From NCBI GenBank assembly GCA_963785235.1, contig CAWAUM010000001.1, forward strand, positions 96,001-160,000: a stretch of 64,000 nt of DNA. Reading direction: 5' to 3'. The translations under genes and the position numbers were made by a program. The first letter of the stretch is position 1; the number at the start of each line of letters is the position of its first letter. Positions 7,556 through 16,397 of this stretch are shown in pieces. Source of the DNA: an uncultured delta proteobacterium. Its GTDB lineage: Bacteria; Desulfobacterota; Desulfomonilia; UBA1062. Below the pieces are notes generated by a model. It was not told where the DNA came from and ran no database searches. It worked only from the letters and a program-made list of their open reading frames with translations.

Positions 7556-7780
7556 AAAGATCTTCCCCTAAAAAGGATATTAAATTAATGTGTTAAATGT
7601 AAACTATGCAATATGGATCTTTTTGAGTTTTGTTACCATAGCATCTACACTTCAAATGGAGTATAGAGAATATCTATCTATTATCTGTGATTTTGACCTT
7701 ACGGTCAATATGAATTCAGATGTTATCCCTCCTTGAAGATGAGTCTGCAGAGATAACCTTTGCTTGTAAGGAGGGAAAAA

Positions 7781-10700
7781 ATGAATATGTGCACTGTATG
7801 CGGTGCTCCCGTGGTCCCGACCGGCCGCTATTGTCATCAGTGCGGTTCGGGTCTTCATGATCACCAGGCCAGATCCGAATACCGCTTTGTTACTATACTC
7901 TGTACGGATTTAAGCGGGTACACCCTGTTGTCGGAAAGGTTGGACCATGAAGAGCTTCGTACATTCATGGCGAAATTATTGAGCGAAACAACGCTGGTCA
8001 TCAGGAGATTCGGCGGCACTGTGGAAAAGTATATCGGCGATGCGGTAGTGGCAATATTCGGCAATACTAAAGCGAGAGAAGACGATCCTATAAGAGGTAT
8101 CCTGGCCGCCAAGGAAATACACAAGATTGTTGAGGGGATGAATATTCTCCTCCCGGAAACCTGCAACATCCGTCTGAATATGCATACCGGTATCAATACA
8201 GGTGAGGTTCTGATGGACACCGGTATGCCTACCGACTCCATCCACGGAACACTGGGTAAACCTATCAATATTGCATCCAGGCTGTGCGATTTAGCCGCCG
8301 ATGGAGAGATACTGATAAGTGAGGCGCTCGTAACAGAAACCATGCGTTATTTTCAGCTCGAATGGTTAGGCAGAAAGATGCTCAAAGGATTCCGAAAACC
8401 TCTCCATGTGTATAAGGTTATCCATGAGAGATCCGTCCCGCTTGCAGTGCATAGGATTGGCGGTGTTACCTCGCCCATGGTGGGCCGCGAGCATGAACTG
8501 TCTATGCTTCTATCGAAGGCGAGGGATCTTCAATCAGGGAGAGGCGGTGTAACGTGCATCATCGGCGATGCAGGTGTTGGTAAAAGCAGGCTGATTGAAG
8601 AATTTAAGGTAACTCTTGATGAGAGTGTACCATTTATAACAGCAACCTGTTTCGATCATACAAGCTCTAAGCCGTACTTTCCCTTTTCGAGACTCATACA
8701 GGTATTATTGGGGCTCGATAGTATGCATGGCAGCAAAGAAGAAATTGCTAAGGCCTTAACCCGACATGGACTGTCCGGGGAGTATGCCGCTCACCTTGTC
8801 TTATTCATGGATTGTGCACTACCTCCGGTGGTGAATCTCCCGATATCTTCAAGGAGAAAGGCAGTGATGCCATGCTATGGCTGCTCAGTTCTGCGGCTTT
8901 GAATCAGCCTACAGTTTTCTGCATTGAGGATATCCATTGGGCTGACCAGAGCACACTTGATCTTCTGACGTATCTAATCCATAGGTGGGATAAGTCCTGT
9001 CCAAGTCTGCTGCTCCTTACGCACCGACATGGCGTGGCGAGCCCCTTTTTAGCTGCCCGCCTTGTCCTGCGGGAGCTCGGTGAGCTAGAAGTGGGCACGA
9101 TGCTTAATAATATGCTTAATGCCGTCCGGGTCCCTGATACGACGGTTAGCTCTCTGGCAGAAGCAACGGGAGGCAACCCATTCTTTGTTGAAGAGATGGT
9201 CAACTACCTCCTGGAAAAGGGGGTGGATCTATCCGACCATTGCCAAATCGGCCGGTTGGCTGAGCTGCCCACAACCTTACATGGTCTCATCTCTTCGCGG
9301 CTTGATCATATGGGGGCTGCTTCCAAGAGGATACTCCAGGAAGCGGCACTCATTGGAAGGATATTTACTGAAACCCTATTGGCCTTGGTTTGTTCAGAAA
9401 AAGATGTCTTGAAAGAGGGCTTGGATGAATCAGTCAAACACGGATTCATCCAATCTGTCAGTAAGGGGGAATACATCTTCAAGCATGAGATTACCCGTGA
9501 TGTAGCAAGCAGGACCCTCTTGAAGAAAGAGAGGATCAGGCTGCACAGGAAGATCGCCCTGGCCATAGAAGATAGTTGCGGAATATGTTTAAAGGATCAT
9601 GCCTCAGAACTTGCCTATCACTTCGGGAAGGCGCAGGAACATTTAAAGGCGCTTTATTATCATATGGAAGCCGGCAAACACTGCCAGGCAACAGGTGCCT
9701 GGGTCGAGGCCGGTGCGCATTTTTTATCAGCAGAACAATATCTCCATGCCGACAAAACACTGCCCGGTGGAGAAGAGCTGCTTGTGGCCATACAAGAAGG
9801 GATCTGGAGATGCTATCGTGTGTTCAATCCGGGCCGGGCTATTGTTGCCCTGGAAGAGCTTGCGGGCTATTACCGTCTTAAGGGCCTTCATGAGGAAGAG
9901 GCCTTTTGTTCCATCCGGCTCATTAATCTCTATTCCCAGAAGGGTCTTTTTCATAAGGCAAAAGAGAGCTATGACTTTGCCTTAGCCATCATCCGTGACA
10001 ATCCGGTATTGATTGCGGCAACACATACTGTCTATGCCTACACCTACACCTTTCTCGGTAAGCCCCTTGATGCGTTGCGCCTGCTTGATGAGGCCCGGCC
10101 TGCTCTCGATGCATCGGACCGGTTCCTTTATACCATCAATGTCCTGACTACTTTGGCTGCAAGCGTATGGAAGGGTGATATGGAGGGTTCACGTTCCTGG
10201 TACGAACAGCTAAAGAGATTCAGTAGTGCATATATGGATATTGATCTCATGGCCGATATGTGGCTTGCCCACATATATTGCCTTGAAGGGAGATTTGAAG
10301 AGGCCCGTAGGGTTTTTGAGGATGTATCTTCGCGGGAGATGAAGATTGGGATGCTCGCAGGTGGGCTTTCCTATTTGAGGATCCAGGGCTCCATCTATTT
10401 CCGGTGTCGGTATTTCGGAGACATAAAAGGCGCCAGTGCAGACCTGGAGGCATTTAATGCGCTGGATGGAGAAATATACTACCCGGGCTCGTTAAAGGAT
10501 CTATACCGTGCATGGATTGCATTGGAAAAAGGCAATCCGTCGCAGGCAAAGGAGCTCATCAATACTGCACTACCAGGCCTACGGGATGGTGTTGCCAACC
10601 GTGTGCCCTATGCCCTGAACGCACTGGCTGAGGCATACTGCCTCCTGGGTGATTATAACGCTGCACAGAGTACTGTCCGGGAAAGTATAACCTGGAATGA

Positions 10701-10995
10701 GCAAAGGGGCAATGTGGACCAGCTCATCTGGGCATTAAGGGTATTTGCCGAGATATGTACCTCACAAGGTCAATATGATACTGCCCATAAAGCGCTATCG
10801 CGGGCATATCCCCTTGCCTGTTCATCCATGATGAAACCGCATAAGGCTTGGATCATTGGTTCATGGGGGAATCTCCTCAAGGCGGCCGGTAAGTCATTAA
10901 AGGCGCAGCGGTGCTTTGGTAAATCGCTCAAGCTCTGGAAAGAGATGGGCAATCCGCTCCAGGAAAAACAAATGGCAAAAGAACTTAAATCCTGA
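7781..10995 (+). CDS. Zn-ribbon + class III adenylate/guanylate cyclase + STAND AAA ATPase + TPR protein (frameshift near 8800)
   Basis: CTVC..CHQC; cyclase motifs TDLSGYT, EKYIGD, GINTG, NIASRL; VGREHEL, Walker A GDAGVGKS; ORF 8812-10995 continues with EDIHWAD, GGNPFF, winged helix and TPRs. The two ORFs read as one gene split by an indel. Confidence 0.88.
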
Positions 10996-11251
10996 TTTTG
11001 AAATAAATACACTATACACGACAGGTGGCCTTAAGCGCAAAATCCGGGATAAATATCACAGACATTCCGGATGTTGCTTAAAACCTATGGACTGCAGTTC
11101 CTTTTTTGTAATCCAAGGGGCTCTTAATCCTTTAATCAAAGCGGTCTTACACGCCCTTCCCAGCTCACTTTTGCGGCGTTGCTGAAACACTGTTTTATTT
11201 ACATCACAGGGCTAATGTTTTTGTCATTGTGCTCGATAGGTTAAATTATAG

Positions 11252-11286
11252 CAGGGCTTTCATGCCTGAACTGTTCTTTGACAACT
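11252..11286 (+). promoter_or_regulatory. Putative boxB-like hairpin plus boxA antitermination motif in the riboswitch leader
   Basis: CAGGGC-tttcat-GCCTG hairpin then TGTTCTTTGACAAC, close to the rrn boxA consensus TGCTCTTTAACA. Confidence 0.45.
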
Positions 11287-11430
11287 TATGAAAGAGCCAT
11301 GTGTGCTCTTTGGCTCCAGAGGCCACACATGGGTAAAAGAGTAACTTAAAGCAGCAAAAAGCGCCCTTCAAGAGAAACAAAGAGGGAAAACTTGAGCCAG
11401 GATCTCCTTGAGAGGTCCCTCGGGCACTCC

Positions 11431-11515
11431 TTCACAAGCCAAACCACAGGTAACTGTGGGACGGAAAGCCACGGGTCCATACCTAACGTAGGGTGGACAG
11501 CCGGGTCGCCTCCTT
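11431..11515 (+). ncRNA. GEMM-I (c-di-GMP-I) riboswitch aptamer 1; G at specificity position
   Basis: G(11438)-CC-AAA-CCACAG-GTAA-CTGTGG-GAC-GG-AAAGCC-ACGG-GTCCAT...GTGGAC-AGCCGGGTCGCC; GNRA-capped P2 and P3 as in Geobacter-type aptamers. P1 is not obvious. Confidence 0.92.
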
Positions 11516-11596
11516 CAGAACCACACCATGGGTAACCATGGGCCGGAAAGCCACGGGTCCGAAAAAGTGCTCGGACAGCCGGGTTGCCTGAAAAGG
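11512..11596 (+). ncRNA. GEMM-I riboswitch aptamer 2; A at specificity position (predicted c-AMP-GMP / GEMM-Ib type)
   Basis: TTCA-GA-A(11520)-CC-ACA-CCATGG-GTAA-CCATGG-GCC-GG-AAAGCC-ACGG-GTCCGA...TCGGAC-AGCCGGGTTGCC-TGAA; P1 TTCA/TGAA. Confidence 0.92.
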
Positions 11597-11611
11597 ATTC
11601 ACCAGCACAGC

Positions 11612-11690
11612 TACACCAGCCACACCATGGGTAACCATGGGCCGGAAAGCCACGGGTCCACACGGAGTGTGGACAGCCGGGTCGCCTGGA
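11612..11690 (+). ncRNA. GEMM-I riboswitch aptamer 3; G at specificity position
   Basis: CCA-G(11619)-CC-ACA-CCATGG-GTAA-CCATGG-GCC-GG-AAAGCC-ACGG-GTCCACAC-gga-GTGTGGAC-AGCCGGGTCGCC-TGG; ends 25 nt before the ATG. Confidence 0.92.
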
Positions 11691-11714
11691 GAACCTCATC
11701 AGAAAGGAGTTCCA

Positions 11715-12221
11715 ATGAATAGAACAAATCTACTTGCTGCCCTGTGTATGATCGCGATGCTCATACTACCGCAGGCAGGATTAGCCAAGATGGTGGCTTT
11801 GTCCGATGCCGATTTAAGCGAAGTCATCGGTCAGGCAGGTTTTGCTGAAGATACAACTACGACATTCAATTCGCATATTGACAACATGCCTACACAGTAC
11901 GGACTCTTGAATCTCAGCGACGTAACTATGCAGGGCTCCATTGTCAATAGGGCTCCCACGGCCACGATCACGAATACAGCCATGACCAATTTAGCTGTTC
12001 CTGGCTTCGTTCCTGGCTTCGCTATGCCGGGTCTCGGATTGATGGGTCTCGGGTCTATGGGTCTCGGCACACACCTGATCGATATGACCATCAACATCGA
12101 CAAATACACCATCGGCGCCATTCGCATAGGGAACGATACGACTGGACCGAGCTTGGGCGATTTCGCGATGTACGGATTTAAGGCAGATATCAAAGGGACA
12201 GTATCAATCACGGCGCATTGA
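11715..12221 (+). CDS. Secreted DUF6160/FilA-like protein
   Basis: AGGAG RBS, signal peptide, M.ALSD..LS.V.GQAG motif, C-terminal SLGDF...GTVSITAH. Family assigned from remembered motifs, not from a search. Confidence 0.75.
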   Translation: MNRTNLLAALCMIAMLILPQAGLAKMVALSDADLSEVIGQAGFAEDTTTTFNSHIDNMPTQYGLLNLSDVTMQGSIVNRAPTATITNTAMTNLAVPGFVPGFAMPGLGLMGLGSMGLGTHLIDMTINIDKYTIGAIRIGNDTTGPSLGDFAMYGFKADIKGTVSITAH

Positions 12222-12304
12222 AGCGCATGATGTTACTCTTTTACCTAATCTTTCCCTTGTAATCCCAAGGAGACTATCTTTTGAAAGATCTTCAAAGGTG
12301 GGCA

Positions 12305-13105
12305 CTATTGGCGGATGAGCCTTGCCCTGTCGATATCATCTGTGTCTTTCGGGTGAGAGCTCCTCAAGGGATTTATATCGATGCCGCCCCGCCTGGTATA
12401 AAAACACCTGACAGTTAACTTGTCCGGCTTGCATCTCTCCATAATATCTAAAAATATCTGCTCGCACACCTCTTCTGCAAATCCTTCGTGATCACGGTAG
12501 GAGCAGATATATTTCAGCAGCGCCTCGTGATCGATGGTCCTTCCCTGGTAGCATATGGCCACACTCCCCCAGTCCGGCTGGCCTGTGATAGGGCAGTTGG
12601 TCTTCAATAAATCCGAGTAGAGTTCCTCCTCAGATAAGCCTTGTGAGCATGAGAGCAGGGCAGGGTCCCTTTGGAAGGTAGTAATCTGAATATCCCGGTT
12701 GTCCAGGCAGGTGCCAGCCGGATGAGGCCGACAGGTCATCTCGGGGAAGCCAGCCTGTTCAATGATTCGCACCGAGATCCATTCGGTTGACAGGATATGC
12801 TCAAGGTCATGCCGGATGATTTCTTCAACCCCTTTGGCCGAATCGAAATTCTCGAATGAGAGGCCGCCTAAGTAGAGCTTGAGGGATTTCGACTCCACAA
12901 TGCATTTGCTTTCAACGGGATAGACGATCTCGAGGATACCTATCCTGGGTTTGCCTTTGCTGTTAAGCCAGGATAGCTCATAAGACCGCCAGAGGTCATA
13001 CCCGTAGAGCTTATACCCGCAGGGCTTTCTTGGTATGGGATAAAGCACTGAAGGATCATGACCCTTGGGGTGAGGGATTTTATTGCCAAGCGGCATTTGG
13101 TTCAT
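12305..13105 (-). CDS. queF: NADPH-dependent 7-cyano-7-deazaguanine (preQ0) reductase, bimodular type
   Basis: DLWRSYELSWLN.KGKP, IVESKSLKLYL, CPITGQPD, YTRRGGIDINP. Confidence 0.96.
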   Translation of the reverse strand: MNQMPLGNKIPHPKGHDPSVLYPIPRKPCGYKLYGYDLWRSYELSWLNSKGKPRIGILEIVYPVESKCIVESKSLKLYLGGLSFENFDSAKGVEEIIRHDLEHILSTEWISVRIIEQAGFPEMTCRPHPAGTCLDNRDIQITTFQRDPALLSCSQGLSEEELYSDLLKTNCPITGQPDWGSVAICYQGRTIDHEALLKYICSYRDHEGFAEEVCEQIFLDIMERCKPDKLTVRCFYTRRGGIDINPLRSSHPKDTDDIDRARLIRQ

Positions 13106-15444: not shown

Positions 15445-16397
15445 ATGCCGCTGTTTAAAAAGAACGCGCTCTTCATGGCGCCCATGGTGGACTTGAGCCA
15501 TGTGGCGTGCCTGGATCTCATACGATCATTCACCGGTTGCGACCTCCTCTATTCCGAGATGCTCAATGCCCGCATCGTGCCTTGTGAAAAGCCCGGGGTA
15601 TCGGTTTACCTGAAATGGAGCAGGCTTGACGACCTCATCTTCCAGATAGCAGGCAATGATCCTGAAAAGATGCAGGAGTCTGGGGCCAGGCTCGATGGTT
15701 TCGGGCCCTTTGGTGTGGATATCAACATGGGATGCTGGCTCAAGAAGGTAACCTGCCATGGATGGGGTGCAGGGCTCATGAAGGACCCCTCCTTGGCGCA
15801 CAGAGGTCAGTTACAGCGGTAAGGAAGGTGGTAAAGCATTCCCTGTCCGTCAAGATGAGGATCGGCCACAGCCCGGATGTAAAGGCCATGCTGGATTTCG
15901 CCGCCATGCTGGTGGAGTCCGGGGTCGACTTCATCGTTCTCCATGCCAGAACCGTAGAAGACGGCATGTCGCGCAGGGCAAAGTGGGAATATATCGGAGC
16001 GCTCAAGGATGCCCTTAAGATACCGGTGGTGGGAAACGGAGATGTGAGGTCTGCGCAGGATGCGATCGCAATGTTCCAACAGACAGGCTGCGACGGCGTG
16101 ATGATCGGCAGACAGGCACTTATCAGGCCCTGGATCTTCAGGGATATCAAGACGCTCCAAGCTGGTGCCATACAGCATAATCCACCGGCGCTCATGGATG
16201 TGATGCTTGAGCTGCACCGGCTCCTCTTGGTCCATTTCACCCCTGATGTGGCACTTAAAAGATTCAAGATCTCATTGTTCTGGCTTTCCCAGAATCTCAC
16301 CTTCGGCCACCACCTGTGTAAAAACGTGGGCAGGGAGAAGACCATGGACGGTGCCAGGGCATGTATTGAAAAGGCCTTCGAGCAGGGCATTACCTGA
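15445..16397 (+). CDS. tRNA-dihydrouridine synthase family protein (frameshift near 15800)
   Basis: MAPM, DINMGC, GAGLM in ORF 15445; SVKMRIG, LHART, VGNGDV, DGVMIGR in ORF 15732. Confidence 0.88.

Follow-up and report, generated by a model that had tools for sequence, protein, structure and literature searches.

A three-aptamer GEMM-I leader with one altered ligand pocket precedes a DUF6160 gene in an uncultured delta proteobacterium

The array and its gene

The stretch of DNA analysed here (denoted the window; 64,000 nucleotides (nt), contig CAWAUM010000001.1, positions 96,001 to 160,000) comes from the genome of an uncultured delta proteobacterium of the Desulfomonilia (source genome, G000). 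At 11428-11690 of the window lies a leader with three genuine aptamers of the GEMM-I class, the class I riboswitches for cyclic di-GMP (c-di-GMP-I; Rfam family RF01051), all of them scoring above the 35-bit gathering cut-off of the family. The leader precedes a gene for a small protein that matches the Pfam family DUF6160. The four features are as follows:

11428..11513, + strand: aptamer 1, GEMM-I, pocket G11438 / A / C; RF01051 63.7 bits, expectation value (E) 3.8e-10 (cmscan at gathering thresholds); covariation in helices P2 and P3
11510..11591, + strand: aptamer 2, GEMM-I fold, pocket A11520 / A / C (a GEMM-Ib-type signature); RF01051 55.6 bits, RF03167 51.7 bits
11609..11689, + strand: aptamer 3, GEMM-I, pocket G11619 / A / C; RF01051 53.6 bits, E 1.1e-7 (cmscan at gathering thresholds); covariation in P2 and P3
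11715..12221, + strand: regulated gene, 168-residue protein, Pfam DUF6160 (30.6 bits, cut-off 27), N-terminus resembling a signal peptide

An initial annotation, made from the sequence alone, had described three GEMM-I aptamers within 260 nt, and the scores of 63.7, 55.6 and 53.6 bits bear this out. The comparison with the Rfam c-di-GMP-I model that it had proposed as a check gave aptamers 1 and 3 at gathering thresholds, and aptamer 2 with laxer filters and in a whole-genome search. Specifically, a filtered cmscan of the whole window reported aptamers 1 and 3 and missed aptamer 2. With laxer filters aptamer 2 appeared at 11515-11592, where the best model was the clan member RF03167 (51.7 bits, E 2.3e-11; under the cut-off of 59 bits for that model), and the whole-genome search with RF01051 located it at 11510-11591 with an E of 5.2e-10. 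These three aptamers were the only RF01051 matches in the source genome (3.9 Mb, 93% complete; 249 candidates, 150 scored).

In all three aptamers helix P2 is capped by a GTAA (GUAA) loop of the GNRA type, and all three share the GGAAAGCC junction and the AGCCGGGTYGCC 3' side. The pocket columns were located by means of the consensus lines of the variant models RF03167 (GGC) and RF03168 (UAU), whose names we take to denote the pocket positions 20, 47 and 92. The equivalents of A47 and C92 are A and C in each aptamer. The base 5' of the CC pair (position 20), which falls on model position 11 in each full-length match, is G11438 in aptamer 1, A11520 in aptamer 2 and G11619 in aptamer 3, exactly as first annotated. 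Aptamers 1 and 3 thus have the combination G20/A47/C92, and aptamer 2 has A/A/C and departs from it at G20. Consensus folding of 20 leaders with RNAalifold revealed 14 of 76 predicted pairs that keep pairing through changes on both sides, all of them in P2 or P3. The three-aptamer leader is a real, conserved array of the c-di-GMP-I class.

Within the uncultured Desulfomonilia family to which the source genome belongs, 34 of 52 genomes contain RF01051 matches, and 25 of these 34 have three adjacent aptamers. By manual count the latter comprise 12 of 15 genomes in the genus of the window (g1), 8 of 12 in g5, 4 of 5 in g11 and 1 of 2 in g12. No RF01051 match was found in the 24 genomes of the sister family. 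A DUF6160 homologue lies 3' of the array in 20 of the 23 loci that could be oriented; of the remaining three, one lies at the end of a contig and two are solitary aptamers at other places in those genomes. The array is old: the same DUF6160 gene stands behind it in four genera, and the triple array predates the genus.

The number of aptamers varies in some relatives. One genome (G014, locus L017) has only two aptamers, slots 1 and 2 being apparently fused, and in another (G001, locus L015) slot 1 has degenerated: position 20 is A, the CC:GG pair is broken and the score lies below the search threshold. Some contigs of two sequencing runs (X2 and X7) join 11345 to 11619, that is, the upstream hairpin region directly to aptamer 3-like sequence, and others join aptamer halves at 11478/11573. 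These junction contigs are likely to stem from relatives with shorter or recombined arrays.

A shared expression platform and its predicted switch

The three aptamers are closely spaced. Aptamers 1 and 2 overlap by 4 nt (11513/11510), and 15 nt separate the end of aptamer 3 from the Shine-Dalgarno sequence AAGGAG (11704-11709), which is followed by the ATG at 11715. Three short segments are predicted to take part in alternative pairings:

11510..11518, + strand: CUCCUUCAG, at once the 3' tail of aptamer 1, the 5' half of the helix that closes aptamer 2, and an anti-Shine-Dalgarno element (RNAalifold; alternative pairing by folding)
11588..11605, + strand: CUGAAAAGGAUUCACCAG; its first part mimics the Shine-Dalgarno sequence and supplies the 3' strand that closes aptamer 2, and its second part supplies the 5' strand that closes aptamer 3 (folding, alignment)
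11686..11709, + strand: the shared platform CUGGAGAACCUCAUCAG AA AAGGAG, nearly unchanged across all 20 leaders (four genera), with the Shine-Dalgarno sequence predicted to be paired without ligand

The 25 nt that lead from aptamer 3 into the Shine-Dalgarno sequence hardly vary among all 20 leaders, whereas identity of the DUF6160 proteins falls to 37% across the same set. The + strand of 10900-12400 showed no terminator-like site, and terminator-based control was rejected on this ground; the one site on the - strand is the P2 hairpin of aptamer 1 in reverse. The overlap, the lack of a terminator-like site and the single Shine-Dalgarno platform do not agree with independent switches that each possess a platform or terminator of their own. 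We read the three aptamers as feeding one shared translational switch, a model that builds on the predicted folds described below.

In the RNAalifold consensus, the junction CUCCU is paired with the Shine-Dalgarno AGGAG in 19-20 of the 20 leaders, and the tail of aptamer 2 (CUGA..AGG.UUC..CAG) is paired with the tail of aptamer 3 (CUG..GAA.CCU..UCAG). The aptamer 2 tail is itself a Shine-Dalgarno mimic and can alternatively pair with UCCUUCAG, which yields the canonical closing helix of aptamer 2. When the leader of the window was folded with the aptamer cores enforced, the sequestered state had an energy of -138.5 kcal/mol and a probability of the Shine-Dalgarno sequence being unpaired of at most 0.23. 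With the closing helix of aptamer 2 enforced, the energy was -133.9 kcal/mol (a cost of 4.6 kcal/mol), and with that of aptamer 3 added it was -131.8 kcal/mol (a cost of 6.7 kcal/mol), the unpaired probability then being 0.47-0.93. The energy of nanomolar binding exceeds 4.6-6.7 kcal/mol; a ligand-driven switch is therefore plausible. Two columns of the leader alignment, 209 and 293, were seen to change together, with A293 in four of the five rows that have G209 and G293 in the other 15 rows. This co-change is compatible with a shifted register of the helix that closes aptamer 2.

The folds suggest the following mechanism. Without ligand, the junction CUCCUU would pair with the Shine-Dalgarno AAGGAG and the aptamer 2 tail (CUGAAAAGGAUUC..CAG) with the aptamer 3 tail (CUGGAGAACCUCAUCAG), and translation would be off. 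Ligand, chiefly on aptamer 2, would stabilise the closing helix formed by UCCUUCAG with CUGAAAAGGA; this helix would capture the anti-Shine-Dalgarno element, leaving the ribosome site free and translation on. Aptamers 1 and 3 may sharpen or bias the choice. The ancestral array would read c-di-GMP three times, and the exchange of G20 for A in the source genome and in its sister species G011 would make the middle aptamer a weaker, bispecific binder of c-di-GMP and 3',3'-c-AMP-GMP (cGAMP) and so retune the threshold. Our preferred reading, in which we place about even confidence, is accordingly phrased as an ON switch: the three-aptamer leader may gate translation of a small secreted DUF6160 protein through one platform, with A20 retuning the threshold. 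The data show the aptamers and their conservation, the genuineness and recent origin of the A, the absence of terminators and the potential for the pairings; which way the switch works, what aptamers 1 and 3 contribute and which ligand is preferred are inferences.

Several features of the folds weigh against this reading. When the closing helix of aptamer 2 alone was enforced, the two G of the Shine-Dalgarno sequence remained largely in local pairs (unpaired probability 0.06-0.08). Covariation cannot prove the long-range helices, which hardly vary, and their conservation could serve another purpose. A canonical closing helix of aptamer 1 from its own flanks was sought by eye and none was found; the 5' flank pairs upstream. 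Finally, the predicted off fold has all cores formed together with a long aptamer 3 closing helix, and ligand could stabilise this off state.

The last point corresponds to a switch of reversed polarity, in which ligand would lock the nested fold with its sequestered Shine-Dalgarno sequence and high c-di-GMP would repress the protein. The consensus and the single-sequence minimum-energy folds both combine three folded cores with a sequestered Shine-Dalgarno sequence, and in the nested fold the pocket of aptamer 2 still has a helix (CUGA:UCAG) directly next to it and the closing helix of aptamer 3 extends to 13 base pairs (bp). However, an off fold that is always stable leaves the ligand nothing to do, and only the aptamer 2 closing helix accounts for the joint change of columns 209 and 293. 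In addition, c-di-GMP-I riboswitches usually switch on the genes for secreted and surface proteins that lie behind them. We consider ligand-induced repression rather unlikely and keep the ON switch as the preferred reading.

History of the A at position 20 and ligand choice

Position 11520 is covered by contigs of three DNA runs (X1, X2 and X3) and of a metatranscriptome (X7), which belong to four studies and have A only; one of the four may be the source sample of the window, and contigs hide rare variants. The representative of another species of the same genus, G011, also has A, in an aptamer 2 that is one loop base off the window copy. A sequencing error, the doubt that the initial annotation had attached to this base, is ruled out by the agreement of the contigs from the four runs with the sister species.

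Of 89 RF01051 matches from 33 genomes of the family, 87 have G at position 20 (86 identified by pattern, one by eye); A is confined to aptamer 2 of the source genome and G011. For the slot-2 aptamers alone, a manual count gave A in 2 of 29 and G in the other 27, so that the A is not conserved among orthologous aptamers. The two genomes read CAGAACC versus CAGAGCC in the nearest relatives G002, G008 and G013; beyond the A, aptamer 2 of the window differs from the G-type copy of G002 only in the first pair of P3 and a single base of the P3 loop. The prevalence of G (87 of 89) therefore indicates an ancestral G/G/G array, with the A as a recent change. On this comparison of sequences, the A is one recent G-to-A transition in a c-di-GMP-type aptamer, which has survived one speciation.

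Aptamers 2 and 3 had been noted to be nearly identical in the core and to differ at position 20, and this is correct: they share a tract of 40 identical nt (11521-11560 and 11620-11659) that begins directly 3' of that position. Within one genome the P2 sequence tends to be common to slots 2 and 3. This pattern suggests that the two slots have been homogenised within genomes, position 20 lying just outside the identical tract. The proposal of a duplication followed by a specificity switch is right in part. The triple array is older than the genus, slots 2 and 3 look homogenised, and the switch is a late, lineage-specific point change.

The A stands at the position that separates c-di-GMP-type from cGAMP-type pockets, as had been pointed out, and aptamer 2 carries this A20 within a GEMM-I fold, the mark of GEMM-Ib. 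The G20A variant of the riboswitch Vc2 is bispecific, with dissociation constants (KD) of 53 nM for c-di-GMP and 120 nM for cGAMP, compared with picomolar and 10 uM values for the wild type, and several natural A20 riboswitches are bispecific too (PMC6140456). Similarly, an A-variant among near-identical aptamers of Desulfobacca acetoxidans has gained cGAMP binding, perhaps with a slight loss of c-di-GMP binding (PMC9481103). By analogy with these cases, we give an even chance to aptamer 2 being a bispecific, weaker c-di-GMP sensor that retunes the threshold.

The initial annotation had gone further and proposed that one leader integrates two second messengers as a logic gate. Here, aptamer 2 would be a cGAMP-selective GEMM-Ib aptamer and aptamers 1 and 3 would bind c-di-GMP, the protein being made at a particular combination of messengers, and cGAMP would be supplied by an unrecognised synthase or by a gene missing from the assemblies. 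Consistent with such a gate, the A20 is accompanied by canonical A47 and C92, it is fixed in two species and present in four runs, and it lies in the very aptamer whose closing helix competes directly with sequestration of the Shine-Dalgarno sequence. Moreover, base 20 decides between cGAMP and c-di-GMP in Gmet_0970, where A20G turns cGAMP selectivity into c-di-GMP selectivity (PMC6456294).

The search for a source of cGAMP does not favour the gate. A search for Hypr-type GGDEF domains, which had been suggested as a check, found no Ser or Thr of this type at the 11 specificity sites that could be read from 16 GGDEF matches in the source genome (nine Asp, one Asn and one Met, the Met in a sub-threshold GGDEF fragment) or at nine GGDEF sites of G011 (eight Asp, one Asn; genome 88% complete). 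SMODS/CD-NTase domains gave no match in five genomes (the source genome, G011, G002, G008 and G013). Besides, aptamer 2 is otherwise of the G type, which is the context where G20A gives bispecific binding (PMC6140456).

A candidate for an unusual synthase is a REC-GGDEF gene outside the window (G000:C11:289969-290874), in which Asn replaces the guanine-reading Asp (GHExGN ... GGEEF). The Asn at the base-reading site is present in 19 of 19 loci of the family (L060-L078), which would suit a two-input gate; the closest homologues in the sister family have Asp (9 of 9). However, the Asn-type protein also occurs in genomes with G/G/G arrays and in genomes without an array, its signature is GGEEF rather than GGDEF, and the gene in the source genome has an in-frame TAG where G011 has Ser. 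Given that no known cGAMP synthase was found in the two genomes with the A, and that the A-variants of Vc2 and Desulfobacca are bispecific, the two-messenger logic gate is possible but weakly supported, and is not the best-supported reading; we judge it unlikely. The A20 aptamer is less likely to be a dedicated input for a second messenger than a bispecific binder that retunes a threshold.

Set against the bispecific, threshold-retuning aptamer are the Geobacter A20 aptamers, which can be highly selective for cGAMP and are flipped by A20G (PMC6456294), and the survival of the A through a speciation, which could mean that it is adaptive. With assemblies that are 93% and 88% complete, a cGAMP synthase could be absent from the sequences searched. 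The DncV-like Pfam family PF21654 gave no match, and as no control genome matched either, that search is uninformative. The REC-GGDEF protein with Asn at its specificity site is a further point on this side, as a candidate synthase.

It is also conceivable that the change is neutral drift or early decay, the G-to-A exchange weakening or inactivating aptamer 2 while the leader works with the remaining two sensors. Aptamer number is indeed not fixed, as the two-aptamer and degenerate loci of G014 and G001 demonstrate, and of 29 slot-2 aptamers only two have the A. Aptamer 2 nevertheless keeps every other conserved position and pair and still scores 55.6 bits, the Vc2 G20A variant still binds at nanomolar KD (PMC6140456), and loss of aptamer 2 should be costly in a model in which its closing helix frees the Shine-Dalgarno sequence. 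We regard decay as quite unlikely and a bispecific, retuned aptamer 2 as the preferred reading.

Triplets of c-di-GMP-I aptamers and the G20/A20 pocket rule are already known. The survey of Sherlock et al. 2022 (PMC9481103) catalogues 347 doublets and 12 triplets of c-di-GMP-I riboswitches, and its logic-gate table has no pair of c-di-GMP-I and c-AMP-GMP aptamers. The array of the window belongs to the same riboswitch class and is likewise multi-copy. The survey describes its tandems as pseudo-cooperative independent switches, and one of its triplets may be the present array. A further triple c-di-GMP-I case is yebA of Bacillota (PMC12452182). In the triple-tandem c-di-GMP-I riboswitch Bc3-5 of Bacillus thuringiensis CT-43, control is tighter and more digital, its polarity not being reported in the abstract (Zhou et al. 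2016, PMC4759541). Like Bc3-5, the leader has three GEMM-I aptamers in one 5' untranslated region (UTR), and a more stringent, more digital response may be expected of it. Unlike Bc3-5, which is described as three complete riboswitches, it has abutting or overlapping aptamers, one Shine-Dalgarno platform, no terminator-like site and one altered pocket.

The Geobacter GEMM-Ib riboswitches include a tandem pair at GSU2885 as well as Gmet_0970 and GSU1761 (PMC6456294). They resemble the present case in the A20 within a GEMM-I fold, in the tandem copies and in the deltaproteobacterial lineage. Geobacter, in contrast, possesses the Hypr GGDEF protein GacA and many A20 riboswitches that act via terminators, whereas here there is one A20 aptamer in the genome, with G20 neighbours, no Hypr GGDEF was found in the two genomes searched, and control is predicted to be translational. 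A parallel in the pocket itself is provided by the Desulfobacca acetoxidans set and Vc2 G20A (Keller et al. 2018), where near-identical aptamers differ in the pocket base alone and the A version gains cGAMP binding and keeps that of c-di-GMP; those variants reside in separate leaders or were engineered, whereas here G and A versions adjoin in one leader. Tandem glycine riboswitches also place several aptamers on one expression platform (PMC4759541, PMC9481103). They are of another class, with two aptamers and known inter-aptamer contacts.

A described mixed G/A/G triple array was not found in the literature searched, the scope of which excluded supplements and the papers Kellenberger 2015 and Nelson 2015 (PNAS). 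Less described, in any case, is an arrangement of three abutting aptamers on one ribosome-site switch in which Shine-Dalgarno and anti-Shine-Dalgarno mimics recur. Sister species that have this leader with either G or A at the specificity base amount to a natural experiment, and this pair allows the effect of a single pocket change on ligand choice and gene output to be measured directly in the native context. Should cGAMP be found in these bacteria, the leader would represent a two-messenger RNA gate that occurs naturally beyond the Geobacter group.

Flanking elements and the DUF6160 protein

Further conserved elements were identified upstream of the array and behind the gene:

11213..11239, + strand: conserved block TAATGTTTT-N-CTCGATAG, candidate sigma-28-type promoter (TAAA-N15-GCCGATAA-like), kept in 20 leaders from four genera
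11274..11284, + strand: conserved block TTCTTTGACAA, invariant in the leader alignment; with eight occurrences in the genome it is not unique
11297..11332, + strand: conserved 5' hairpin of ~15-16 bp with compensatory changes among relatives (inverted repeat I3); folds in 21 of 21 relatives
11332..11345, + strand: 5' arm GGUAAAAGAGUAAC, able to pair with the 3' arm that follows the gene (inverted-repeat analysis)
11382..11433, + strand: stem-loop domain directly 5' of aptamer 1, in which the purine-rich GAGGGA pairs with the first CUCCUU-type element (UCCUUC) (single-sequence minimum-energy fold)
12232..12245, + strand: 3' arm GUUACUCUUUUACC, 11 nt downstream of the stop codon and complementary in sequence to the 5' arm; pairing possible in 20 of 20 arrays

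The blocks at 11213-11239 were compared with the sigma-28 consensus. They are spaced as in a FliA promoter and possibly represent a promoter of the sigma-28 type. A FliA gene is present in the source genome at G000:C1:161457-162134 (276.7 bits, cut-off 189.6), ~1.5 kb past the end of the window. A loose sigma-28 pattern matches the genome at 119 places, so that the pattern alone cannot validate the promoter.

The 5' hairpin at 11297-11332 has predicted energies of -19.8 to -24.7 kcal/mol in all 21 relatives, and G006 and G014 are among those in which both partners of a pair have changed. It has no match in Rfam, and the contigs of the RNA library (X7) are without coverage of 11300-11435. In the neighbouring domain at 11382-11433, inspection by eye indicated that the inner hairpin varies in sequence among relatives.

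In the window the two arms that flank the leader and gene are perfectly complementary, and their 14-mer occurs at two places only in the 3.9-Mb genome. All 14 pairs between the 5' and 3' arms are possible in 20 of 20 arrays; 12 arrays have Watson-Crick pairs throughout, seven have one G-U pair and one has two. Changes in the arms are only transitions that give G-U pairs, and an RNA helix between the 5' and 3' UTRs therefore fits better than an inverted repeat of the DNA. A more elaborate scheme would combine this helix with a change of ligand: the G-to-A exchange would have made the switching aptamer a cGAMP input, fed by an unrecognised type of GGDEF protein such as the Asn REC-GGDEF, so that the leader would compute on both messengers, on an mRNA that is also clamped by the 14-bp 5'UTR-3'UTR helix. 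We consider this combination very doubtful. Hairpin-like direct repeats, TTGTAATCC(C)AAGG (D3), lie on both sides of the leader-gene cassette at 11106-11119 and 12257-12270.

In the DUF6160 protein, residues 25-40 (11787-11834) contain the motif LSDADLSEVIGQAG, which follows the signal-like stretch and resembles a double-glycine bacteriocin leader. The NCBIfam search of the protein returned a single sub-threshold match to a bacteriocin-like leader (E 0.089, residues 24-39), and a literature search on DUF6160 found nothing relevant. Elsewhere in the window, a gene for an adenylate/guanylate cyclase-AAA-TPR protein (7760-8902 / 8812-10995) and a dihydrouridine synthase gene (15445-15822 / 15732-16397) are each split into overlapping frames, as are several GGDEF genes in other parts of the genome, which suggests assembly indel errors or pseudogenes.

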